DNA of 64,000 bases from Patescibacteria group bacterium (GTDB taxonomy: Bacteria > Patescibacteriota > Minisyncoccia > Phycocordibacterales > UBA1550), in the NCBI GenBank assembly GCA_038062675.1, contig JBBTWP010000003.1, forward strand, positions 37,934 through 101,933. Direction: 5' to 3'. Shown in pieces: positions 6,772 through 58,530 of the stretch. How positions within the stretch are numbered: the stretch's first letter is position 1; every line of letters starts with the position of its first letter. The notes beneath the pieces are model-generated. The model made no database searches and was not told where the DNA came from. It worked only from the letters and a program-made list of their open reading frames with translations. Both the position numbers and the translations under genes were made by a program.

Positions 6772-6972
6772 ATGGCAAAATCATGTCCAATCTGTAATAA
6801 AGGCACCATCATCGCGGGAGGTTACTCCAACCGCGTGCGTGCAACCAAGTTCAATCCTGTCGGAAAGAACCGCAAATACCCAAATCTTCAGTGGGCACCG
6901 CTCGCCGACGGCTCACGCCTCAAAGTATGCACTCGTTGCATGAAGGCCGGAAAACACTTGGAAATTAAGTAG
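6772..6972 (+). CDS. rpmB: 50S ribosomal protein L28
   Basis: 66 aa; 'CPICNKG...TKFNPV...PNLQ...KVCTRCMKAGK' is the L28 family pattern. Confidence 0.85.
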   Translation: MAKSCPICNKGTIIAGGYSNRVRATKFNPVGKNRKYPNLQWAPLADGSRLKVCTRCMKAGKHLEIK

Positions 6973-7040
6973 TTTATCAACTGCCCCCACAAAGAAAAAG
7001 GAGGTTGCCCTTGGGCAACCTCCTTTTTCTTTGTGGGGGC
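6891..7040 (+). repeat. Direct repeat copy 1 (rpmB 3' end plus terminator, ~150 bp)
   Basis: Near-identical to 7792..7941, with a few substitutions. The substitutions include compensatory changes in the hairpin stem and an inverted loop ('cccttggg' versus 'cccaaggg'). Confidence 0.9.
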
Positions 7041-7042
7041 AG
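6981..7042 (+). terminator. Long GC-rich hairpin terminator after rpmB
   Basis: 'ctgcccccacaaagaaaaaggaggttgccc ttgg gcaacctcctttttctttgtgggggcag' has perfect ~29-bp arms. Confidence 0.6.
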
Positions 7043-7076
7043 TTACCGAGGATCGTCCTTGTCACCAGAAGTAAAA

Positions 7077-7364
7077 CTACGTCAACTGCACACTCTTTCC
7101 TAATGCATGCGCAACACGATTAAGCGTTCCGAGTGAGATGCTGTGCTTTCCGCTCTCAATACGTGCAACAACAGACTGGGGCATTTGCGCCTTTTTTGCA
7201 AAAGTTTCTTGGGTCAACTTCTTTTGAAGGCGGAGATGCTTTATCTCGCTTGCAATTTTTAACCTAAAAAATTCTTCGTCGTATGCTTCTCTAAATTTTG
7301 GAGACTTTAATTGTTTTTTAAGTATTTGTTCAAACGTTTTAGTTTTTGGAAGTTTTTGTGCCAT
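7077..7364 (-). CDS. HTH XRE-family antitoxin (HigA-like)
   Basis: 95 aa; C-terminal HTH 'LTQETFAKKAQMPQSVVARIESGKHSISLGTLNRVAHALG' is XRE type. Lies immediately downstream of the toxin-like ORF. Confidence 0.65.
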   Translation of the reverse strand: MAQKLPKTKTFEQILKKQLKSPKFREAYDEEFFRLKIASEIKHLRLQKKLTQETFAKKAQMPQSVVARIESGKHSISLGTLNRVAHALGKSVQLT

Positions 7365-7416: not shown

Positions 7417-7719
7417 TTATTTCATCATTTTATAAACATTCACTGCTCTCTGTATTTCCTGTGGTGGCGTCTTTTGAGTTTTCTTGATAAACCCTGATAC
7501 AAAATAAATTGCATCTTTCTTTACAAAGAAGAGAATTCTGTACCTTTTTACAATCAACTCGCGAATGGGACTTTTAAGCAATTTTGTATAAACATTATCA
7601 AAATTTGTCTCCATCATTTTGATACTTGCTGAGACTTTCGCGCGATCTGTTTCAGGAATTTGCTCAAAAAAGCTCAGTGCGTCATCAAAGAACTTAATGT
7701 TAAATTTCTTCACAACCAT
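7417..7719 (-). CDS. RelE/ParE-superfamily toxin, phage Gp49/HigB-like (DUF891-type)
   Basis: 100 aa; '...RYRILFFVKKDAIYFVSGFIKKTQKTPPQEI' matches the conserved 'hhhhhGFiKKTQKTP' C-terminal signature of Gp49-like addiction-module killers. Toxin-first order with a downstream XRE HTH gives HigBA-like architecture. Confidence 0.55.
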   Translation of the reverse strand: MVVKKFNIKFFDDALSFFEQIPETDRAKVSASIKMMETNFDNVYTKLLKSPIRELIVKRYRILFFVKKDAIYFVSGFIKKTQKTPPQEIQRAVNVYKMMK

Positions 7720-7791
7720 TATTCCTGCAATAATTAATATAATCGACCCAAGTTGAGTATAGCAAAATTGCTATACTCATGTCAAACGAAT

Positions 7792-7941
7792 GTGGGCACC
7801 GCTCGCCGACGGCTCACGCCTCAAAGTATGCACTCGTTGCATGAAGGCCGGAAAACACTTGGAGATTAAATAATTTACCAACTGCCCCCACAAGGAAAAA
7901 GGAGGTTGCCCAAGGGCAACCTCCTTTTTCCTTGTGGGGGC
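7792..7941 (+). repeat. Direct repeat copy 2 (orphan duplicate of rpmB 3' end plus terminator hairpin)
   Basis: Encodes the same C-terminal peptide '...WAPLADGSRLKVCTRCMKAGKHLEIK*' as rpmB but lacks the 5' part of the gene. Hairpin at 7882..7943. Confidence 0.9.
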
Positions 7942-8031
7942 ACAAAACTATTTCAAAATTACACCACAAACCTTTTTCCCCAAGGTCTCACCTCGGGTGT
8001 CCACGAGGACGATCCTTACCATGGGCTATCT

Positions 8032-11000
8032 CTAATACACCTTAAAAATACCTTGAGTCCCATCGACGCCACCGTCGTCGCAATAATTTACAGCTGAGGA
8101 GGAAACGAGTTCAACTCTCTCTATTTTCTCTGTTTGCAACGTGCTGAGTCCTACTCGCTTTAAAATTGCCCTCATTAGTGGGAGTGACGGAACTGTCGGA
8201 TTTCCGGCATGTGCACAGTATCCACTTCCTGCGCCAGGCCATCCAGGGTAACCACTTCGCGCCCATTCACAATACTGACCTTCATATACTTCCGCAAGAT
8301 TGGCATTTTTAGCATAAGAGCACCTAAAATAGAGCGTAATAGGTGTCCGAATCGTCACCGTCACCGATTTTGACACGGTTCTATTATTGCCTCCCAAGCA
8401 TACTAATTTGTAAGTGTGGCTTGAGGTAAGGGACCCTGTATAATAAACCCCACCAGAACTAAACTTAACTCCATCCCAATCCCCCCCACCACCAGACCCT
8501 GTGCAGGAAATAACATCTTTTGACGACCACACGAGGGTTGTCTCCGCCCCAGCATAGGAAACATCGGGACTAGCGGAAGTCAACGTAACCGTCGGGTCCT
8601 TTATCTTTACCGTTATTTTCTTTTCCACAGAACCCGCGGCATTTGTACACGTTAGTGTATATGGAGTGTCCTTATTAATAGGGCTGAGTGTTTGTCCCGT
8701 AACGACAAAACTGGTAATATTTTGATTGTCATTCCACCCTGTAGCAGAGCAAGAATCCGCATTATAGACTGTCCATTCAATTTTTGGTGTCCCATTTAAT
8801 CCGATTTGAAAACAATCTCCATCTGAAGAACTGCAGGGGTTTAGTTTGTTTTCGTCAGCAACATATGTCGACTTGTCATGATTGGCGGTAAAGGATAGTA
8901 TCCCTGGTTTCACCTTTACGGTCACCGATTTCTCAACAAGACCACCGGGACCCGTACAGGTGAGAATGTAATTTGCCGTCTTTTGGAGTCCGGATATCGT
9001 CTGTTGCTTGCTCAATTCCGGCTTGTTTATGTCGTACACTACCCCACTCCACCCCCCAGACGCAGTACACGAAGTTGTGTCGGCAGAAGGATTCCAGAAA
9101 AGAGTGGCCGAGTTATTGTAATCCACGACAATACTAGGGTTACTGCCACTACCACTGCTTACATCAGTTGTGCCATTTACACCCTTTGCAATCAGCGTCC
9201 CCGTAGGAAGCGCAAGGAGCTTCACGGTGACAGGAGTGACAGATTTAGTCCCTCCGGGTCCTGTACAGCTCAAAGTATAAGTCTTGTAGGTGTTAGCAGG
9301 ACGCGTAATAGCCGCGACCGTACTGGTTCCAGAGACAGGCTTTGCTCCACTCCATCCACCACCTGCCGTACACTGTGTTGCATTTTCAATATTCCAGACA
9401 AGTTTGGGTTGTGTCCCAGAAACAATTTCTGTCGCCTCGGCATAAAAATCACCCTTAGGAAGAACTTTGATGGTCACTGACTGTGGTTTGGACTCCCCGC
9501 CGGCACCAGAGCAGGTAAGAACGAGTGCCTGCGTGGTGGTAAACGGACCCACAATCATCGTACCAGAAATCTCCTTTGTGCCACTCCAAGGTTTTGTCAA
9601 ATTCTCACCACCGGATGCAGTACATGAAGTGGCACCCTTTCCTGCTGTCCATGTGATATTGGTCGTCTCGCCGTCTGGCACCTGGTTCGGACTTGCACGC
9701 AAAGCACCTGCTGTCGGAAGGGCAACAACACTCACGCTGACTGATTTTGAAACTGAACCGCCCGCGCCCCGGCAATTTAGACTATACGTTGTTGCGCGAG
9801 TGGTAGGAGCCGGTGTTTCTGAGCCCGAAGATTCTTTCATGCCTGTCCACCCCCCAGATGCGGTACATGAACTCGTTCCCTCAGAAGACCATACGAGTGT
9901 AGGGCTTGTGCCATACGGGATTGATATTGACTCTGCAGAAAACTCCATTGTGGGCTTTACAGAAGGCGATCCCGCCAAAACTTGTGCTTCCACTCTTATG
10001 GTAACTGTCTGCGGAACAGAATCTCCCCCCGGTCCGGTGCAGGTTAAAATATACTTCTGTGTGGCAGTGAGTGGGCCAACAACTTCACTGCCTTCAGCTG
10101 TCTTCATGCCATTCCAAGCTCCGCTTGCCGTACACGAAGCTGCATTACCAGTAGCAGACCACGTGAGTGTTGCGTTGCCATTGTAGGGAACAATATTTGG
10201 CTCCGCAACCAGCGTCCCTTTTGGCACACCGAGCACTCTAACGGTTACCGACTTTGTCGTCACCCCTCCGCGCCCAGTACACTTTAGAACATACGTCTTC
10301 GAGGAGACAAGCGGACCAGTGGATTCCGTTCCTGTGGTTGCTTTTCTTCCACGCCAAGACCCAGAAGCATCACACACCGTCGCATCAGACGAAGACCATG
10401 CAAGGGTAGTGGTGCCTTTATAGGGCACAGGATTTGGCTCTGCAGTCAAACTCCCTGAAGGAAGAGGAATGACACTCACCGTCACCGAAGAAGTTACACT
10501 TCCACCCCGCCCTGTACATTTAAGAAGGTATGTCTTCGTTGACAACAATCCGCTTTCTTTTTGATTCCCCGCTATCTTTTTCTCTCCACTCCATCCCCCT
10601 GATGCGACACACGACTCGGTTTCATTCGACGAAGACCACGTAAGCATAGTGTTGCCATTGTAGGGAATAGGGTTTGGGCTTGCATCTAGTCTTCCTGTAG
10701 GAAGTGGGATAACATTCACCGTAAGAGACTCAACTAAAGACTCACCGTTTTCTCCGGTGCATTTCAGGTCATAGGTACGTGCGGAAGTAAGGGGACCAGT
10801 AGAGAATGTTCCTGAGGTTGCTTGCTTTCCTTCCCAACCGTCGAGAGCAAGACAAGAAGTACTGTTGACGGAAGACCATGAGAGAACTGCTTGGCCATTG
10901 TAAGGAACAATAGTTGAGTCGGCACTGAGCACGGCTTTGGGATAGAGAACCTCAGGTCGAGGTGCAAACGGTGTGGGAAACGGATCCACGAATGCGGTTG

Positions 11001-11112
11001 GTCCGTCTATGGGAGTTTTTGGGGTTGCCACCAAAACATAGGCAATGATTGCCCCCACAAGAACAATGACCACCAGTCCAATAATTTTAAATGCGAGAGG
11101 AATATCTTTCAT
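8032..11112 (-). CDS. Large cell-surface protein with N-terminal TM anchor and ~10 tandem ~85-aa Ig-like repeats
   Basis: Start at 'MKDIPLAFKIIGLVVIVLVGAIIAYVLVA' (hydrophobic anchor). Repeats follow the form 'PYNGxxxLxWSSxNATSCxASGGWSGxK...KTYxLxCTGxGG...VTVxV', each with two conserved Cys. The C-terminal ~100 aa is Cys/Trp-containing and non-repetitive. Confidence 0.7.
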   Translation of the reverse strand: MKDIPLAFKIIGLVVIVLVGAIIAYVLVATPKTPIDGPTAFVDPFPTPFAPRPEVLYPKAVLSADSTIVPYNGQAVLSWSSVNSTSCLALDGWEGKQATSGTFSTGPLTSARTYDLKCTGENGESLVESLTVNVIPLPTGRLDASPNPIPYNGNTMLTWSSSNETESCVASGGWSGEKKIAGNQKESGLLSTKTYLLKCTGRGGSVTSSVTVSVIPLPSGSLTAEPNPVPYKGTTTLAWSSSDATVCDASGSWRGRKATTGTESTGPLVSSKTYVLKCTGRGGVTTKSVTVRVLGVPKGTLVAEPNIVPYNGNATLTWSATGNAASCTASGAWNGMKTAEGSEVVGPLTATQKYILTCTGPGGDSVPQTVTIRVEAQVLAGSPSVKPTMEFSAESISIPYGTSPTLVWSSEGTSSCTASGGWTGMKESSGSETPAPTTRATTYSLNCRGAGGSVSKSVSVSVVALPTAGALRASPNQVPDGETTNITWTAGKGATSCTASGGENLTKPWSGTKEISGTMIVGPFTTTQALVLTCSGAGGESKPQSVTIKVLPKGDFYAEATEIVSGTQPKLVWNIENATQCTAGGGWSGAKPVSGTSTVAAITRPANTYKTYTLSCTGPGGTKSVTPVTVKLLALPTGTLIAKGVNGTTDVSSGSGSNPSIVVDYNNSATLFWNPSADTTSCTASGGWSGVVYDINKPELSKQQTISGLQKTANYILTCTGPGGLVEKSVTVKVKPGILSFTANHDKSTYVADENKLNPCSSSDGDCFQIGLNGTPKIEWTVYNADSCSATGWNDNQNITSFVVTGQTLSPINKDTPYTLTCTNAAGSVEKKITVKIKDPTVTLTSASPDVSYAGAETTLVWSSKDVISCTGSGGGGDWDGVKFSSGGVYYTGSLTSSHTYKLVCLGGNNRTVSKSVTVTIRTPITLYFRCSYAKNANLAEVYEGQYCEWARSGYPGWPGAGSGYCAHAGNPTVPSLPLMRAILKRVGLSTLQTEKIERVELVSSSAVNYCDDGGVDGTQGIFKVY

Positions 11113-11279
11113 GAAGTAATGTTCCGTGTTTACCGTCAATAACAATTGTCAGTAAACCTACCCCCTACAGTATACAAGCATCTTGATTTTTGGGCAATGC
11201 GAAATGTGCAAAACAAAAACCCCCCGAGGCAAAGCCTCGGGGGGTTTTTGTTTTGTTTGCATGCACAACTATATTATTT

Positions 11280-12623
11280 TTACTTCGAAGTAACTGTCTC
11301 AACTGTCTCGATACTTGGGAATCCTTTGCAGGTAAGGTTGAAAATGGCTATTCCAGAAAGTGAAACAGTTGAGAAACTAACCGCTTGTGTTCCTGAGAGA
11401 GCTTTTGCGCCACTCCAGTTGCCTGACGCCGCACATGAAACCGCGCCCACCGTTGACCATGTTACCGTCTTTGCTGGCCTGTTGATACTGAAGTTAACCA
11501 AAGGGGGTATCATGACCGAAGATGGAGCCGAGGTACCTCCAGGTCCAGAACATGTCAGAGAGAATGAAGTTGGGGAACTAATACCCGTGACACCCTGCTG
11601 TCCAGAGAGCCCTTTTCCTCCCGCCCATCCACCGGATGCAGCACAAGAAGTTGCGTTTGCAGATGACCAAGTAAGAGTTGCGTAGTATTTTGTAGTCAGC
11701 TTGCCCGCATTTTTGTACGAAAGGGATGCTGTTGGTGCAGAGATGGTAACGGTTACTGTTTTTGGAACACTTGCGCCGCCGACCCCATTGCACGTTATTG
11801 TGTAATCTCTTGGGGAAGTAGTTATGTTGGAAATCGTTTGATTCCCTGCAGTATCTATAGTTGTCCCCGCCCACGCACCACTAGTCGTGCATGAAGTTGC
11901 ATCAGTCGAGGTCCATGAAAGCACCGTGCTCCCCCCAAGAGAGACAGGGTTTGAACTTGCAGTGAATGATGTTACTGTTGGAACAGGAGGTGGGGAGACA
12001 AAGGGAGCGACAGTAATATTTATTACATCAATATCTATATCAGTAGGTTCAGTGCCCGCTCCTCTTGTACACGTTAAGGTATATGTGGCACTTGTCGTAA
12101 GAGTGCCAAGCGGTAAACTTCCTGAGAGTTCTTGTGGTCCCGACCAAGAAAGGGACTCTCCCCCAGACGCTACGCACAAATCTGCGTTTGTTGATGTCCA
12201 GCGGAGCGTAGTGGACTCTCCCCAAGCAACACTCGCAAGATCTGAATAAAATGTATCAATAGAGACAGGGGGAGAAGGAGGTGTGCCCCCGCCCACTGAT
12301 GGCGTCGTCCAACCTACCCCACTTGAAGTATACTCACCTTTTGCGTTTTGGGTTGGAGCGACAAACGTAAGCACTTGCCCCAGAGCCCCCCCAGGAACAA
12401 CAAGCCCTGTTGTAACCAAAACAGCGGGTTTTGAGGTGTCGCCACTATCAATGACCAAGTTTCCCTTCTTTGTCTGTTGTACACTTCCCGTCGTCAAAGG
12501 CGCATCCGCATTTCCATTGGGTGGTGCAGCAGTAGGAAGAACCCATGCTGAAGCAAAACTAATGCCAAACGATAGGATGACAGCAAGAGCAATGAGTTTA
12601 ACGTTTTGAGCGATGTTTTTCAT
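11280..12623 (-). CDS. Secreted protein with the same Ig-like repeat family (paralogue of 8032..11112)
   Basis: Signal peptide 'MKNIAQNVKLIALAVILSFGISFASA'. Repeats such as 'LxWxSTNAxxCxASGG...TLTC'. Confidence 0.65.
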   Translation of the reverse strand: MKNIAQNVKLIALAVILSFGISFASAWVLPTAAPPNGNADAPLTTGSVQQTKKGNLVIDSGDTSKPAVLVTTGLVVPGGALGQVLTFVAPTQNAKGEYTSSGVGWTTPSVGGGTPPSPPVSIDTFYSDLASVAWGESTTLRWTSTNADLCVASGGESLSWSGPQELSGSLPLGTLTTSATYTLTCTRGAGTEPTDIDIDVINITVAPFVSPPPVPTVTSFTASSNPVSLGGSTVLSWTSTDATSCTTSGAWAGTTIDTAGNQTISNITTSPRDYTITCNGVGGASVPKTVTVTISAPTASLSYKNAGKLTTKYYATLTWSSANATSCAASGGWAGGKGLSGQQGVTGISSPTSFSLTCSGPGGTSAPSSVMIPPLVNFSINRPAKTVTWSTVGAVSCAASGNWSGAKALSGTQAVSFSTVSLSGIAIFNLTCKGFPSIETVETVTSK

Positions 12624-12702
12624 AATATGATAAATGATGATTGATTAGATAATACTTCTTTAGTATATCAGTGTGGAAGCAGGAATACTATGTGGAGGTG
12701 TG

Positions 12703-12724
12703 GATAAGTGAGTTACCGAGGACG
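12703..12724. repeat. Palindromic motif 'TTACCGAGGACGGTCCTCGGTA' (copy A)
   Basis: Perfect palindrome. A near-identical palindrome 'TTACCTAGGACGGTCCTAGGTAA' occurs at 27760..27782. Degenerate halves occur at 7043..7059 and 8008..8025. Confidence 0.7.
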
Positions 12725-12731
12725 GTCCTCG

Positions 12732-12767
12732 GTATGTGGGTAAAAAGATAAGAGGCCTTGCGTGAGC
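12732..12767 (-). terminator. Rho-independent terminator after the lipoprotein gene
   Basis: The minus-strand read gives stem 'aagaggc...gcctctt' followed by a U-run (plus-strand 'aaaaaga'). Confidence 0.5.
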
Positions 12768-12798
12768 AAAGCCTCTTGAAATAAACAAATGTACAAAA

Positions 12799-14619
12799 CT
12801 AAGGGATGATTGCTTGAGTGTTAATGAAGGATCCCTCAAATTCCATTACTCTGATTTGGTTCCCTCCATCAGCATCAGCAATGGCAACCGGTGTATATGA
12901 AGAATCACGAAAGAATGAAGAGAAAAAGAAATCCTGTTGAAAAGATATCCTTCCATCTGATATCCACCGCGGACTGCTTCCCTCACCAATCTCCGTAAAG
13001 CCGGATCCATCTGTATTCACCGTAGCAAGGATTTCCTTTTCGTGCATAAAGGCGAAATCTTGCATCTTTGCAGGACTGCTGTAACCAAAAACCAACTTTT
13101 TTCCATCAGGTGACAGCGACATGCCAAGTTCCTGTCCACCCCAATTGACTATATGCCAATCTGCGCCCGTAATGACTTCCGTAATTGGACCCAGATCTCC
13201 CGTTGCCAGATCGATTGATCGCTTGAAGATACCGCACGCCGGACGACAAGAGGTAAAATATTCTTCCCTGCCATCACCAGAAAAGACCGCACTGTAGTCT
13301 TTGTAAGTATCATTGGTAACCGAACCGACCTGGTTAGGAGAGATGCGTGTAAGCAAAATATCTCTTGTTCCCTCAGAACTTACCCCACTGCAAGCGATTT
13401 CATTCTCACTGGGAGACAAACTCATACCTCCGCGACAATCATTACTTGAAACAATCTGCAACCCCTTGTTACATCCTGCAGACAAAGGAACAACTCCTGC
13501 CATATCGTCAGCTGTGCATCCTGCTCCATCTGTATCCAGAATACCCATCTTCTGGCTATTACTATCATTTGCCTTAAAGACAATCTTACCATTGCGCGAA
13601 ACAATTAAACCTTCACTGTAGCGACTAAGGTGAACAAGTGGCAAATAGGTCAAAATATCCTCTTTGCCTGTCTCCATGTCGAACCGGATGATTTCATCAT
13701 TTCTCACAAAAAACGCTTCCTCTGTTGCAATACGAGCAAAACCAACTTCCAAGGGAAACGTATTGGCAAAGACTATCCTCTGTTCCGTCGAAATATCCTT
13801 TACTTCAGAGATAGTAAAGACAACATCGCGGACGGCATCAGACACACCGAAAGGTGGTATTTCTGAAAAGCTTGCTTCCAAAATAATGGTCGCAACCTCC
13901 TGGTAAATGTAGGAACTAAAATCACCATCCACGCCACCAACTTGCCATAAAAAGCTGGAGACAGGATTACTAAGGATTAGTGATGCCTGTCCATTTACCA
14001 CGGTAGCTGTCACGTACTCCGTAGGATTTCCAAGGAAATCCCATTCATTTCGCGAAGTCCCTCTGGCTCTCACCTCTGTAACATACGGAGCAAGAGCACC
14101 ACTGACAGTCAGCACAACCCCTGAAGATGAAAATTTATTCTCAGGGAAAAAGTTGCACTGCCCAACCTTCACAAATCCTTGCGGTTTGCGAGAGATGAGC
14201 ACCCCAGGACCACACGAAGCAGCGACAGCAATAGGCGGAGGAATTGGCACTACAACAACAACTGACGCACTAACAATACCCTCACCAAGATCCATACACG
14301 TCAAATTAAGCGTATATGTTGTACCCGCATTTAGTCCAGACAAAGTGTAATTACTATTATTAACCGTGTAGCTTTTTTCCCACTCCCACCCGCTTGCTCC
14401 TGAAGCACTGCACGAGCTAACATTTGCTGTTGTCCAGGACAACTTTACACTTGCGGACGAACCAACAATAACTGGGGCACTTGCGACGAGCTCCAAGCTT
14501 GGTGTTGGCACTACTACCGGTGGCGGAGGCCCTGAATCAGACCCTCCCCCACTCTTACAACCAGCAACACCGAGAACCAGAACCGCGAAAAGACAGACTG
14601 CCTTTGAGAGCGTCTTCAT
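12799..14619 (-). CDS. Lipoprotein: one Ig-like repeat plus a TolB/PD40-like beta-propeller region
   Basis: Lipobox 'LVLGVAGC'. One 'LSWTTANVSSCSASGASGWEWEK...TYTLNLTC' repeat, then PD40-like 'SPDGKKLVFGYSS' and 'SVSPDG'-type blades. Confidence 0.6.
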   Translation of the reverse strand: MKTLSKAVCLFAVLVLGVAGCKSGGGSDSGPPPPVVVPTPSLELVASAPVIVGSSASVKLSWTTANVSSCSASGASGWEWEKSYTVNNSNYTLSGLNAGTTYTLNLTCMDLGEGIVSASVVVVVPIPPPIAVAASCGPGVLISRKPQGFVKVGQCNFFPENKFSSSGVVLTVSGALAPYVTEVRARGTSRNEWDFLGNPTEYVTATVVNGQASLILSNPVSSFLWQVGGVDGDFSSYIYQEVATIILEASFSEIPPFGVSDAVRDVVFTISEVKDISTEQRIVFANTFPLEVGFARIATEEAFFVRNDEIIRFDMETGKEDILTYLPLVHLSRYSEGLIVSRNGKIVFKANDSNSQKMGILDTDGAGCTADDMAGVVPLSAGCNKGLQIVSSNDCRGGMSLSPSENEIACSGVSSEGTRDILLTRISPNQVGSVTNDTYKDYSAVFSGDGREEYFTSCRPACGIFKRSIDLATGDLGPITEVITGADWHIVNWGGQELGMSLSPDGKKLVFGYSSPAKMQDFAFMHEKEILATVNTDGSGFTEIGEGSSPRWISDGRISFQQDFFFSSFFRDSSYTPVAIADADGGNQIRVMEFEGSFINTQAIIP

Positions 14620-18734: not shown

Positions 18735-18869
18735 TTAAAACAAATCGCCATCAAATGCTGGCGCGTGCTCAAACTCGTCAAATGACGGTCCTGCACCTTG
18801 GTTACGCATCCCTGCTCGATCAATCTCGACCGGGGAACTCGTAGACCAAGGAAGTTCTGGCGTCTTCAT
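18735..18869 (-). CDS. Small ORF 4 (44 aa, no Cys) 'MKTPELPWSTSSPVEIDRAGMRNQGAGPSFDEFEHAPAFDGDLF'
   Basis: Hand-translated. SD 'GAGGAG' 8 nt upstream. First gene of the same-strand cassette. Confidence 0.35.
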   Translation of the reverse strand: MKTPELPWSTSSPVEIDRAGMRNQGAGPSFDEFEHAPAFDGDLF

Positions 18870-25784: not shown

Positions 25785-26933
25785 CTACCTCTTCTTACAC
25801 TTCAAAATCGCGTCAATCCCCGGAAGCTTACCGTCAGCAAGAAAATCGAGTGTTGCACCACCGCCAGTTGAAACAAATGAGAATTTTGCATCCAAACCGA
25901 GTTTGCCCACGACTGCCGCTGTGTCGCCACCACCAATGATTGATGTTGCGCGGGTTTCTGAGATTGCTTTCAAAAGTGAGATTGTTCCTTTATCAAACCC
26001 TTGCTCGTAGTAGCCAAGTGGACCATTCCACACAATAAGTTTTGCTTTCTTTAGAAGCGGTCCAAGGTTACGAATCGTCTCGGGACCGACATCCATAATG
26101 CTTTCACCTGCCCCAACTTCATCTACATTTTTTACGACCGTCTTCTTTGCGCCACCCTGCACCACGACATCTGTTGGTAATATAATCTTGCCGCCTTTCA
26201 AAAGGCGCGTGAGATCTACTTTATGCTTATCCACAAAAGATTTTCCCACTTCAAGTCCCTCATCTTGAAAGAAATCGTTGGCAAGAATACCCCCCACAAA
26301 CACATGGTCAGCAATTTTCAAAAACTTTTTCATAAGTGGCATCTTGGTCTCAAATTTTGCTCCGCCCAAAATAAACAAGAAGGGATGTTTTGGATTGAGT
26401 GCAAGCGAGAGGTTCTTCACTTCGTCGGCAATCAAAAACCCTGCATAGCTCGGCAAATATTTCGTAATTCCTACCACGGAGGCGTGTGCACGGTGCGACA
26501 CAGCAAACGCATCATTCACATAAATATCTCCAAATGAGGCGAGATGTTTTGCAAATGCAGGGTCATTTTGTGTTTCGCGTTCATCCAGACGCAAATTTTC
26601 AAACAAAACTACACCGCCTTCTGGTAAACCATTCACAATGGCTTGTGCGTTCTCAGAACGAAAATCGGGTGCGAATCCAATATCCATAGTCTTGCTTAGG
26701 TAGCGCGCAATCGGTTTAAGAGACGAGGTTGCGTCCTTGCCAATGTGTGAAAAAATAACAATACGCGCTTTTTTCTTGCGTAAATATTCGATAGTAGGAA
26801 TCACGCGATCAATTCGCATCGTTTCCATGATTTTTCCATTTTTCATTGGAACGTTGAAGTCGAGGCGAAGCACCACCCGCTTCCCTTTGATGTTTTTCAA
26901 ATCTTTAATTGTTGGCAGTATTTGTTTGCTCAT
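25785..26933 (-). CDS. pgk: Phosphoglycerate kinase
   Basis: 'RLDFNVPMKNGKI', 'GGGDTAAVV' and 'STGGGA' are PGK signatures. 382 aa. Confidence 0.9.
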   Translation of the reverse strand: MSKQILPTIKDLKNIKGKRVVLRLDFNVPMKNGKIMETMRIDRVIPTIEYLRKKKARIVIFSHIGKDATSSLKPIARYLSKTMDIGFAPDFRSENAQAIVNGLPEGGVVLFENLRLDERETQNDPAFAKHLASFGDIYVNDAFAVSHRAHASVVGITKYLPSYAGFLIADEVKNLSLALNPKHPFLFILGGAKFETKMPLMKKFLKIADHVFVGGILANDFFQDEGLEVGKSFVDKHKVDLTRLLKGGKIILPTDVVVQGGAKKTVVKNVDEVGAGESIMDVGPETIRNLGPLLKKAKLIVWNGPLGYYEQGFDKGTISLLKAISETRATSIIGGGDTAAVVGKLGLDAKFSFVSTGGGATLDFLADGKLPGIDAILKCKKR

Positions 26934-26952
26934 AAATTTATGATATCACACC

Positions 26953-27717
26953 TTAACGAGCCGTCTTCTCCGCACTTTTTAAAATTGCCGCAAACACCTT
27001 CGGGTCCAAACTCGAACGCCCAACGAGAAGCCCTTGTACTTGAGATTTCGCAAGAAAATCTCCTGCGTTTTGTGCATCAACTGAGCCACCGTACAAAACA
27101 GGAATGTTGAAACTCCCTTGCCCATACAAATCGGCAAGTGTTTTGCGGATAAGAATAGTGACTTCAAGTGCGTCGTCTGTTGATGCAGCACGTACAGCAT
27201 TTTTACCAATAGCCCAAATGGGCTCGTAGGCAATTACCACGTTTGCCAAATCCTTTTTAGAAACTCCCTTCAATGCAAAAAGAATTTGTTCACCAATATA
27301 TTTCAAATATTCACCATCAGCGTCCCGAGTGCGTTCTCCCACGCAAAGCACTGCCGTGAGACCGGCTTTGATCGCAGCGTGGACTTTCCTATTTACCAAT
27401 TCATCCGTTTCGCCGAGTGCACGTCGTTCAGAATGTCCGATAATAACGTATGAAACTCCCAATGACATCAACATGTCGGGGGAAACTTCCCCTGTGTATG
27501 CGCCACTTTCTTCAGTCCACGCATTTTGAGCCCCCAAGACGCATCGATGCCCCGTTACCAGCTTTTTCAAATCACCCATATACACAAAGGGCGGGCAAAC
27601 AACTGTTTGTACATTACGAAGAGCCGCCGCTTCTTTTTTGATTGCTGTGAATTTATCGCGCGCCTCTTTTGCACTCACGGGGAACATTTTCCAATTACCA
27701 ATAATCAGTTTCTTCAT
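26953..27717 (-). CDS. tpiA: Triosephosphate isomerase
   Basis: 'VIAYEPIWAIGKN' (AYEPxWAIGTG-type active-site motif) and 'IGHSERR'. 254 aa. Confidence 0.9.
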   Translation of the reverse strand: MKKLIIGNWKMFPVSAKEARDKFTAIKKEAAALRNVQTVVCPPFVYMGDLKKLVTGHRCVLGAQNAWTEESGAYTGEVSPDMLMSLGVSYVIIGHSERRALGETDELVNRKVHAAIKAGLTAVLCVGERTRDADGEYLKYIGEQILFALKGVSKKDLANVVIAYEPIWAIGKNAVRAASTDDALEVTILIRKTLADLYGQGSFNIPVLYGGSVDAQNAGDFLAKSQVQGLLVGRSSLDPKVFAAILKSAEKTAR

Positions 27718-27759: not shown

Positions 27760-27782
27760 TTACCTAGGACGGTCCTAGGTAA
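27760..27782. repeat. Palindromic motif 'TTACCTAGGACGGTCCTAGGTAA' (copy B)
   Basis: Perfect palindrome. Differs from copy A (12703) only by compensating A/T versus G/C changes at symmetric positions. Confidence 0.7.
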
Positions 27783-27783
27783 C

Positions 27784-27845
27784 ACGACCCATGGGGTGAG
27801 AAAATGCGCGGGCATGCCCGCGCATTTTCTCACCCCATGGGTCGT
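27784..27845. terminator. 62-bp perfect palindrome (bidirectional terminator / cruciform candidate)
   Basis: 'acgacccatggggtgagaaaatgcgcgggcatg|catgcccgcgcattttctcaccccatgggtcgt' has no loop and is centred on 'GCATGC'. Lies between the pilus cluster 3' end and the tpiA start. Confidence 0.55.
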
Positions 27846-27869: not shown

Positions 27870-29222
27870 TCACAGAGCCTCGCGCCAATCATACACCACC
27901 CAAGGGGTTAGCACCGCAGGAGGTCCCGCATAAATAAGCATATTTTGGAGATTATTGGTATAATTAATCTTGGCACGATCCTCCATGGTAACTTTATATC
28001 CAACCATATCCGTCATCTGAGCATCGTCTTTTAATTTAACTTCACCATAGGGCGCATACACAATAAGATTTCCAAGCGTGTCATCTTCCACCTCAATCGC
28101 GGTGTTACCACCCCCCGTCGAGGCGCTCGTGTTCCATGAAGCAAGTATGACCTGCGCAAAAGGATTTTGCCCCACATTAAACTCCGCGTCTTGCTCAATA
28201 GTAATTTTCCCTTTTGTCAGACGCAAAAGAGCGGTTCCGGGATCCGCGAGTATTGGCACGCTCTGTGCGCCAAGCGCCAGATCAACATTTACCGAGCCAC
28301 CCGCTTTAATTTCAACATCACCCGTCACCCACACTACTGCACCAAGTGTCAAAGTACTACCGCCATTTATTCGCAAATCGCAATCTATCTTTGTTGGCAC
28401 TGAAATTGTTTCTGATGAACTTACTTGGTATTTCCCTCCTGTGCAGGCTTTCGTGGCTCCGTTCGTGATGACAACGTCTTTCCAACCACCCGAGCCGACC
28501 ATTTGCGTATCTGTTATTGGAAACGCCCTATCTGCAACAGGAGTGAGCAGACTGCACACAGCAGTGACAAGAGGAGACCCCATCTGTGAACTTGGAGCAG
28601 ACCAACAATATGGAACCCCTGTTATAGTTGAATTTGAAATTGTTCCCGCACGCATACTATTAGTCCCCTGATTAATAATTCGAGTAATACTCCCATTCAA
28701 CCCCGTCGTTCCACGAGAAGTCACACTTCCGGTAATAATTGAATTATTTCCCAAAATAGAGCCCCGCGAAAAGACACTCCCATCAATATTCGTACTGCCG
28801 CTCATCGTAAGACCTCCTGCGCCAACATATCCACCGTAGTCAAAAGAAGCTATTGTTGATTGCGTAAGTATCGCAGACGCCTTTCGCACAACATTCCCTG
28901 CAGTTGTCGCCACAGAAGAAACGAGTTTCCCTTCAGGGACATCGGTGATGGTAGTCACCACAGTGTTACCATCAAGGGTGATGGTCTCAGTAGGTCCAAC
29001 CGGAGGTGCGGGTGATTGTTTCAGGCGATACATTGCGTCTTCGAGTCCTGCTTCCGCCAAGTAGTATGCATTTTTTGAAGTCTGGAAATCTCGATATGAC
29101 AAATAGTCACGCATAAATGAAGAGGATGTCCCTAAGACTAAAATCATTGATATGATAACAAAAAAAAGAACGGCAATGAGGACTGCAGCACCACGTTTTT
29201 TTAATATAATATTTTTTTTCAT
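27870..29222 (-). CDS. Type IV pilus-associated large protein, PilX-like N-terminus
   Basis: N-terminal TM 'AAVLIAVLFFVIISMILVLGTSSSF' then 'AYYLAEAGLEDAMYRL' typical of the PilX N-terminal domain. Long Gly/Thr/Ser-rich body. First gene of the minus-strand pilus operon's distal end. Confidence 0.5.
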   Translation of the reverse strand: MKKNIILKKRGAAVLIAVLFFVIISMILVLGTSSSFMRDYLSYRDFQTSKNAYYLAEAGLEDAMYRLKQSPAPPVGPTETITLDGNTVVTTITDVPEGKLVSSVATTAGNVVRKASAILTQSTIASFDYGGYVGAGGLTMSGSTNIDGSVFSRGSILGNNSIITGSVTSRGTTGLNGSITRIINQGTNSMRAGTISNSTITGVPYCWSAPSSQMGSPLVTAVCSLLTPVADRAFPITDTQMVGSGGWKDVVITNGATKACTGGKYQVSSSETISVPTKIDCDLRINGGSTLTLGAVVWVTGDVEIKAGGSVNVDLALGAQSVPILADPGTALLRLTKGKITIEQDAEFNVGQNPFAQVILASWNTSASTGGGNTAIEVEDDTLGNLIVYAPYGEVKLKDDAQMTDMVGYKVTMEDRAKINYTNNLQNMLIYAGPPAVLTPWVVYDWREAL

Positions 29223-56707: not shown

Positions 56708-56765
56708 GTAACACCAGCAAAAGAAAATCGCCCCGTAGGGGGCGATTTTCTTTTGCTGGTGTTAC
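56708..56765. terminator. 58-bp perfect palindrome shared by converging hup and PAS genes
   Basis: 'gtaacaccagcaaaagaaaatcgcccc gtag ggggcgattttcttttgctggtgttac'. Confidence 0.65.
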
Positions 56766-58227: not shown

Positions 58228-58285
58228 CATCCCGCACAAAATGAAAACTCCCAAGCCGAAAGGCTTGGGAGTTTTCATTTTGTGC
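58228..58285 (-). terminator. Perfect 28-bp stem / GAAA-tetraloop hairpin immediately 3' of tRNA-Gly
   Basis: 'tcccgcacaaaatgaaaactcccaagcc gaaa ggcttgggagttttcattttgtgcggga'. The outer part of the stem is formed by the tRNA 3' end itself. Confidence 0.5.
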
Positions 58286-58343
58286 GGGATGGGAGAATCG
58301 AACTCCCGATTTCAGTTTGGAAAACTGAAGTTATACCATTTAA
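58273..58343 (-). tRNA. tRNA-Gly (anticodon TCC)
   Basis: Hand-folded: acceptor GCGGGAT/ATCCCGC, D-arm GTTA-AATGGTA-TAAC, anticodon arm TCAGT-TTTCCAA-ACTGA, T-arm GGGAG-TTCGATT-CTCCC, discriminator A. CCA is not encoded. Confidence 0.8.
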
Positions 58344-58530
58344 CTAATCCCGCCCCATATATGCCTCACGAGAAGCAAGACCTATACTTCGGCCCTAAAG
58401 TGGGGTGTGCAGGAAAACCCGCTCACCTTATCCACTCCGGAGCAAAAAAGAACGTCTTGGGCTATCATAGCAGGACTGCGAATATTTCGCAATTCAAAAT
58501 ATCCAAAAATAAAGATTGAATTAGTTCACT

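Follow-up and report, generated by a model that had tools for sequence, protein, structure and literature searches.

The window analysed here, a stretch of 64,000 nucleotides from a 385,468-bp contig of a Patescibacteria group bacterium, contains a short palindrome at two places, copy 1 and copy 2 (Table 1). Both are intergenic by public gene calls, and the surrounding genes are all on the minus strand. Copy 1 is situated between a gene for a 606-aa protein, which ends in an intrinsic-terminator-like hairpin, and a gene for a secreted 447-aa protein, which is preceded by a promoter-like site. Copy 2 abuts the presumed terminator of a gene for a 450-aa protein and lies upstream of tpiA and pgk. 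A 1037-aa ORF on the minus strand (8032-11145) contains many similar segments of ~85 residues ('...LxWSSxxATSCxASGGWSGxK...') and has no Pfam match; it probably encodes a repetitive surface protein. An Rfam scan of the window at gathering thresholds returned three tRNAs only and no match at the motif.

Table 1. Palindrome copies and adjoining features in the window, and selected copies in loci of related genomes (locus:position)
Feature	Position	Strand	Remarks
Credible decayed REP-like copy	7044..7064	.	TACCGAGGATCGTCCTTGTCA; begins exactly at the end of the first rpmB terminator hairpin
Doubtful relic	8006..8020	.	AGGACGATCCTTACC; resemblance limited to an 11-nt core
Promoter-like site of the 447-aa secreted-protein gene (11280-12623, minus strand)	12649..12677	-	first hexamer 36 nt downstream of copy 1
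REP-like palindrome copy 1	12713..12735	.	TTACCGAGGAC-G-GTCCTCGGTAt; 10-bp arms; G..C variant; singlet
Intrinsic-terminator-like hairpin of the 606-aa gene (12799-14619, minus strand)	12750..12777	-	copy 1 ~15 nt downstream
pgk	25785-26933		after tpiA; Pfam PGK
tpiA	26953..27717	-	Pfam TIM; start codon 42 nt downstream of copy 2
REP-like palindrome copy 2	27760..27782	.	TTACCTAGGAC-G-GTCCTAGGTAA; 11-bp arms; rare T..A variant; singlet
62-bp perfect palindrome, presumed terminator of the 450-aa gene (27870-29222, minus strand)	27784..27845	.	abuts copy 2
Internal copies in RAYT-like genes	L006:1201, L037:1994, L047:5614, L057:10166, L061:10184 and others		own genome's repeat variant
Example intragenic copies	L044:1897 (folP), L042:5847 (tsaD), L021:7267/7289 (miaA), L022:744, L028:3033, L033:879 (fmt)

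A 21-mer pattern, TACC(G/T)AGGACNGTCCT(C/A)GGTA, spans both window variants. An earlier note, made from the sequence of the window, had described the two copies as exact palindromes; it placed copy 2 correctly, and copy 1 had to be moved by 10 nt. Exact in the strict sense they are not: the length is odd, and the centre base therefore cannot be self-complementary. In copy 1, moreover, the outer T/T is mismatched, which reduces its arms to 10 complementary bp. What does stand is that the copies differ at symmetric positions only, i.e., at 5 and 17, which are G..C in one and T..A in the other. In 100 shuffles of the window, 0.00 chance matches to the pattern were expected at up to three mismatches. 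A match at position 18782 was rejected as a chance resemblance of the core within other sequence.

As single-stranded DNA, both copies fold into a hairpin with a stem of 9-10 bp and a loop of 3 nt, with −8.7 kcal/mol (z −4.26) for copy 1 and −8.3 kcal/mol (z about −4.3) for copy 2. They are, like REP sequences, short palindromes capable of forming a stem-loop. The terminator scan gives copy 2 a terminator-like score on the minus strand, to which a T-rich tail contributes; copy 1 has no T-run and is placed 3' of a complete terminator. Many long terminator hairpins of the window lack the motif, which is therefore a separate element. That it might be a component of every long terminator hairpin was considered and rejected, as hairpins without it exist.

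The site of copy 2 can be compared between genomes. In a relative with a TpiA 95% identical (L063), the same repeat is present at the same site with its centre base flipped; in another with a TpiA 87% identical (L062), neither the repeat nor the 62-bp palindrome is present, and the proximal tpiA promoter with its TACAAT is retained despite the absent repeat. The flip (G at 27771 of the window versus C at position 31 of L063, in gene orientation) amounts to an inversion of the palindrome. Contigs from the same population add no useful variation at the tpiA site; all they show is an N-gap in the adjoining palindrome. For copy 1, the nearest homologue of the 447-aa protein is only 41% identical; a close orthologue to compare is lacking, and this site is therefore not comparable between genomes.

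Degenerate versions of the motif had been noted on either side of a toxin-antitoxin insertion at rpmB. They deserve to be treated separately. The one at 7044-7064 deviates from the family consensus in 3 of the 18 specified positions (about 0.35 matches at up to four mismatches are expected per shuffled window) and no longer forms a hairpin on DNA folding; it is a credible decayed copy. The other, at 8006-8020, has a core with one mismatch, of which ~0.5 are met per window by chance; against the full motif, 7 of 18 positions are mismatched, and a full-motif search of the window at up to four mismatches missed it. It is notable only for a core that, read as the reverse complement, matches the one at 7049-7059 exactly. 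Of the alleged bracketing, the left-hand half is a credible relic and the right-hand half a doubtful one.

The 3' end of rpmB together with its terminator hairpin is duplicated (6891-7042 and 7791-7942). The decayed copy is part of a 30-nt stretch that is present after the hairpin of rpmB copy A and missing after that of copy B. Its position would be compatible with a former REP insertion there. Between the duplicates lie two minus-strand genes, at 7417-7719 for a Gp49/HigB-like toxin and at 7077-7364 for an HTH antitoxin. The rpmB hairpins themselves show compensatory changes in their arms and an inverted loop, TT versus AA. The further idea that the motif marks hotspots of insertion or recombination is unproven: there is one convincing relic only, the duplication ends at 7042 and 7942 and not at the second motif, and no island is found next to either of the full copies. 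Nor is a link between the motif and the toxin-antitoxin insertion around rpmB, for which one degenerate copy can be quoted, established.

Scanning 185,579 species, each represented by one genome, with TACCNAGGACNGTCCTNGGTA yielded 47 loci, all of them in Patescibacteria (Kaiserbacteria, Adlerbacteria, Paceibacteria and some labelled Saccharibacteria); from the information content of the pattern we estimate ~17 chance matches for the 596 Gb. Viral contigs were scanned as well and contained no match. The hosts beyond the window are related ultra-small groundwater bacteria. Within the loci fetched, exact or near-exact copies (up to two mismatches) amount to 15 in PFBM01, 9 in MFKT01 and 8 in JAUSHX01. 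A logo of 76 copies shows a unit of 21 bp with sharp edges, extended weakly by T/A; beyond the palindrome of 21-23 bp no position is conserved, and a GT(A/G)G head is absent. Adjacent pairs, 20-45 bp apart and with opposite centre bases, are common. Most adjacent pairs are opposite in centre base or orientation and thus form inverted, REPIN-like doublets (L002, L005, L021, L045, L054, L061). Copies are also found in spacers between convergent ORFs (L009, L012, L017, L040; orientation according to a crude ORF caller).

Both window copies are intergenic; in the relatives, 20 of 61 exact copies are in frame within Pfam-supported ORFs, and the family is, in this respect, not extragenic. The count was restricted to Pfam-supported ORFs because, in GC-rich loci, the crude ORF caller assigns copies to genes too readily. 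The genes concerned are miaA (two genomes), fmt (three genomes), prepilin peptidase, purL, alaS, topA, uvrB, tsaD, folP, an nth-like gene, an ATP-grasp gene, an O-antigen-ligase-like gene and the gene of the presumptive transposase discussed below. The common variants are free of stop codons in all frames and encode peptides such as YQGxSLV, TKDxPW and PRTVLG. In folP a doublet accounts for 13 extra residues in comparison with solved DHPS structures; in tsaD a doublet is located within an insertion of ~36 residues relative to E. coli TsaD. In fmt seven codons are overwritten without a change in length, LPRTVLG standing where a relative has LPKEILD, and across the three genomes the motif varies at synonymous positions only. 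Such a replacement of equal length is something that simple cut-and-paste insertion would not predict. In the literature searched, no report was found of REP-like repeats that are present in frame in essential genes as well as around and within the gene of their presumptive enzyme, as is seen here.

An enzyme resembling a REP-associated tyrosine transposase (RAYT), as is to be looked for if the palindromes are REP-like, is encoded beside the motif in related genomes. By tblastn, a gene for a Y1 transposase adjoins the motif in 8 of the 47 loci, and 5 further loci, fetched later as homologues, have the same arrangement, each with the variant of its own genome. A RAYT-like gene with repeats next to it is thus found in 13 related loci. 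In eight of them both flanks carry repeats (L004, L047, L027, L034, L055, L059, L060, L061); in four the repeats are upstream and inside only (L006, L037, L054, L057), and in L032 a repeat is seen downstream of a RAYT-like gene that is cut. The upstream copies are 16-60 nt away from the start codon, others at or after the stop codon. In L006 three copies precede and one is located within an ORF that bears the motifs Y-H-V-F-N-R-G, P-N-H-F-H and Y-V-H-L-N-P. Apart from the centre base, copy 1 of the window is the very sequence that flanks, and is also contained in, the gene of L047 and flanks that of L004. PFBM01 has the 21-mer that flanks the gene of L006 on 5 further contigs as well (L001, L002 on same contig, L005/L045, L023, L041), and also in MFKT01 and JAUSHX01 the flanking sequence recurs elsewhere in the genome.

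The protein, ~230-260 aa long, exceeds the Pfam gathering score of 23 for Y1_Tnp (PF01797) in five of five cases tested (28-31.5 bits); it misses the equivalog cut-off of the NCBIfam model REP_Tyr_transpos (NF047646) with 36.3 versus 80 bits. It is a distant relative of the curated NCBIfam RAYT family. Homologues number 681 at E ≤ 1e-5, some of them labelled RayT by JGI. Seven aligned proteins all have the N-H-x-H of P-N-H-F-H, together with Y and N of the motif Y-V-H-L-N-P. An alignment of 30 sequences confirms L, N and both H of L-x-P-N-H-F-H as invariant, P and F as nearly so, and Y, H, L and N of the second motif as invariant, V as nearly so, while its final P is not listed as conserved. 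The conserved tyrosine we take to be the catalytic residue, by comparison with E. coli YafM. Searches of the PDB by sequence, with the protein or its profile, gave nothing significant, and a fold search was needed. The AlphaFold model (pLDDT 78) has as its top match 4er8_A (probability 1.00, E 2e-3), i.e., the REP-associated transposase of E. coli bound to a REP hairpin, which outranks the TnpA structures of IS608 and ISDra2. The Y1/HUH fold, the H-hydrophobic-H motif and the conserved tyrosine of a RAYT are all found.

The gene shares its neighbourhood in L054, L057, L059, L060 and L061: in four of the five, rplJ and rplL follow on its 3' side, and recA and ftsK are on the 5' side in L054 and L061. 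In these syntenic loci no match to a TnpB domain is on record among the neighbouring genes, and the multiple gene copies typical of an insertion sequence are not seen in any of the loci. RAYT genes are known to be flanked by inverted REPs, whose 16-mers abound genome-wide, to occur in about one copy per genome and to be inherited vertically, not on IS-like units (PMC2817692; PMC5581495). The window itself contains no RAYT gene by tblastn, and a profile HMM run over its six frames gave a best E of 1.7; the genes of the syntenic neighbourhood are absent from it as well, and none of the best 120 of the 681 homologues is located on a contig as long as that of the window. The genome of the window would nevertheless be expected to encode such an enzyme.

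Enzyme and repeat also co-vary. A further copy of the repeat inside the RAYT ORF encodes Y-x-G-x-S-x-V, ~30 residues before the HUH motif. Among 92 homologues, residues 2 and 6 of this peptide pair as reverse-complement codons: Q-L 27 times, K-F 24, R-S 8, G-S 4, E-F 3 and P-W 2. Compatible pairs are seen in 72 of the 92, versus 38.8 ± 3.5 after shuffling, with a maximum of 51 in 5000 shuffles. The prediction that the flanking repeats resemble the internal 21-mer held in nine of nine loci, in which the two are equal or differ at a few positions. In L061, for instance, TACAAAGGAGAGTCCTTTGTA is identical at four places, two upstream, one internal and one at the stop codon. L057 has the variant GACGAAGGAGAGTCCTTCGTC, L059 has TATCCAGGACCGTCCTGGATC, and L054 has CCCAGAGGACAGGTCTCTGGG in the form of inverted pairs. 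The repeats of L060 are of the TATGGAGG-CGGTCCTCCAT type with 3-4 mismatches among copies, and L006, L037, L047 and L055 have canonical and G variants.

The symmetry of the repeat is preserved when its sequence changes. Of 76 copies, 70 have complementary bases at positions 5 and 17, versus 63 ± 2.5 under a null of within-genome permutation (P ~0.006). At an orthologous site in nth, one genome has the canonical motif and another has TACAGAGGACAGTCCTCTGTA, again a perfect palindrome reached by paired changes. Together with the codon co-variation of the internal copy, these data corroborate the selection on dyad symmetry that had been postulated for the window copies, or else a mechanism that preserves symmetry. 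On sequence grounds, such paired changes would argue for recognition of a structure or for a palindrome-correcting mechanism, not for a simple operator.

How, then, are the two palindromes to be explained? The repeats that bracket a Y1/HUH gene in related genomes and vary together with it support a REP/RAYT reading, and we put the probability that both are solo copies of a RAYT-served, REP-type repeat family common to a clade of Patescibacteria at about 80%. The earlier note had offered a REP-like element and the site of a dimeric protein side by side. The former option is the one that prevails, since the same 21-mer and its variants flank the Y1/HUH gene; the latter fits poorly. As the operator of a dimeric transcription factor, the motif would define a regulon of tpiA-pgk, the surface protein and the transposase gene. 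The perfect dyad symmetry, the location of the window copies 42 and 90 nt before the start codons of genes, the copies 16-60 nt before the RAYT start codon and a sequence conserved across families, as is often seen with regulon operators, would be in line with this. An operator, however, is expected at the promoters of a coherent set of genes, and the copies are also found in ORFs, 3' of stop codons, those of RAYT genes included, and in convergent spacers, where a promoter is unexpected; about a third are inside unrelated housekeeping genes. The variants within a genome stay palindromic by paired changes, which fits the recognition of a structure better than that of a fixed half-site. Finally, the tpiA promoter is kept without the site in the 87% relative, and no recurrent gene for a DNA-binding regulator was noted beside the copies. 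We consider an operator quite improbable.

Nor does a role as extra terminators or mRNA-stabilising hairpins under local selection, with a merely historical likeness to the RAYT-linked repeats, fare any better; this we regard as very improbable. True, copy 2, which has a T-rich tail, is accepted by the minus-strand terminator scan, both copies adjoin terminators, and long terminator hairpins abound in the window. Terminators, however, do not conserve their sequence, yet the 21-mer is common to many genomes, and copy 1 lacks a T-run, a complete terminator being present upstream of it. This reading concerns a local effect and is therefore compatible with a REP origin. The least probable proposal, in our view a very remote one, is a DNA uptake or other genome-signature sequence (USS/DUS, parS-like), spread by biased uptake or selection and not by transposition. 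These bacteria would be expected to carry competence genes, the motif is limited to one clade, it occurs in coding and non-coding DNA, and in fmt it takes the place of a peptide that resembles it anyway (LPKEILD to LPRTVLG), with the length unchanged. Uptake sequences, however, occur about once per kb, and the density of the motif is far below that: 2-3 per 64 kb in the window and, for any one genome, no more than 15 copies, exact or near-exact, among the loci fetched. The copies in folP and tsaD are true insertions of 13 and ~36 residues, and the bracketing of a Y1 gene as well as the co-variation of repeats and internal copy would remain unexplained.

If the REP/RAYT reading is correct, the events may be envisaged as follows. 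The 21-nt unit, when exposed on single-stranded DNA, would form its hairpin of 9-10 bp with a loop of 3 nt. This would be recognised by the cognate, presumably vertically inherited Y1/HUH nuclease, whose own gene is bracketed by the repeats and has one copy inside. The enzyme would cut near the hairpin, and copies would thereby spread and be maintained, mainly as inverted doublets. The unit equals 7 codons, and none of its common variants introduces a stop codon, whatever the frame; copies could therefore persist in genes as well as in spacers. In the window, each of the two lies in a short spacer that separates the terminator of a minus-strand gene from the promoter of the gene after it. Probably they are passengers; their role would at most be that of an additional hairpin for termination or insulation. 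Among the points against this explanation is the situation in the window: it contains no RAYT gene, two good copies and one decayed copy per 64 kb are a low density, and all are singlets. The NCBIfam score below the cut-off, the PDB searches by sequence, the missing head, the intragenic third of the copies and the equal-length replacement in fmt count against it as well. Under the REPIN model, as we interpret it, singlets are remnants of doublets and not active elements (PMC3337134).

One may go further and imagine a domesticated hairpin-nuclease system that writes stop-free palindromes of 7 codons into genes, the internal copy being a self-recognition, autoregulatory or master site and the repeats long-lived functional features instead of junk. 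We mention this tentatively, as a possibility that falls somewhat short of being probable.

REPIN-RAYT systems are on record for Gammaproteobacteria (PMC2817692) and, more broadly, for fully sequenced genomes (PMC5581495). In the literature searched, an incomplete collection, no paper linked REP-RAYT to the candidate phyla radiation; the system would be new for Patescibacteria, and its very short, near-perfect palindrome, the intragenic copies in frame and the copy in the ORF of the enzyme are unusual. With the gammaproteobacterial examples (E. coli yafM with its BIMEs, the REPINs of Pseudomonas and Stenotrophomonas) it has in common the dispersed hairpin palindromes, often as inverted doublets, and a repeat-flanked Y1/HUH gene that co-varies with the repeat (PMC2817692, PMC5581495). 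Also the conserved locus of the enzyme gene, devoid of IS features in the loci seen, and the maintenance of palindromy by paired changes are shared. Classical REPs, however, have a conserved GT(A/G)G head beside the stem (PMC2817692), which is missing from the almost perfectly palindromic 21-bp unit of these Patescibacteria. Further differences are that one variant is common to genomes with proteins only 50-60% identical, that copies are counted in tens, not in hundreds, that a third of them are intragenic and in frame, one even inside the RAYT ORF, and that the protein of ~230-260 aa stays below the NCBIfam cut-off for RAYT.

The TnpA enzymes of the IS200/IS605 family recognise hairpins on single-stranded DNA. 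IS608 and ISDra2 share with the present protein the Y1/HUH fold and motifs (Pfam Y1_Tnp; fold matches 2a6m and 2xqc). In contrast to IS200/IS605, no TnpB match is on record among the neighbours, the loci seen contain no multiple IS-like copies, the gene is syntenic, and the hairpins are dispersed alone and are not the ends of an element. The palindromic elements of Rickettsia (RPEs) come to mind because they, too, are palindromic repeats in frame that add peptide to conserved proteins; they are mentioned in PMC1779305 and PMC10969869. The unit described here differs from them in its 21 bp (42-45 bp as a doublet), in its tie to a Y1 enzyme and in fmt, where codons are replaced with no length added. 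RPEs measure ~100-150 bp and have no known cognate transposase. Like USS/DUS, finally, the motif is short, clade-specific, present in coding and non-coding DNA and sometimes arranged in inverted pairs near gene ends; unlike these far denser sequences, it is palindromic and physically and evolutionarily tied to a transposase gene.

Within bacterial genomes, REPIN-RAYT systems are regarded as "replicators" that persist for a long time and are inherited vertically. Their occurrence in highly streamlined genomes of ~1 Mb bears on the question of whether such a repeat is a tolerated parasite or useful. The internal copy in the enzyme ORF offers a direct read-out, at the sequence level, of the co-evolution of enzyme and repeat, and the in-frame copies in essential genes make these bacteria a second lineage, besides Rickettsia, in which palindromic repeats reshape proteins. 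A more practical aspect is that the palindromes and the long hairpins next to them break metagenome assemblies.

Some minor observations on the window may be added. The 62-bp palindrome near tpiA is the site of a break or an N-gap in public assemblies from the same population. Very long perfect hairpins with arms of 22-34 nt are found directly 3' of genes at 2542-2610, 6979-7044, 7883-7942, 11209-11255, 27784-27845, 56708-56765 and 58228-58291. One arm of the last of these, a hairpin with arms of 30 nt, overlaps the end of tRNA-Gly(tcc) (58282-58353, minus strand) by ~10 nt. Between 38000 and 46000 the GC content dips to 0.37-0.38, versus 0.44-0.50 elsewhere, and this part may be foreign or atypical DNA.
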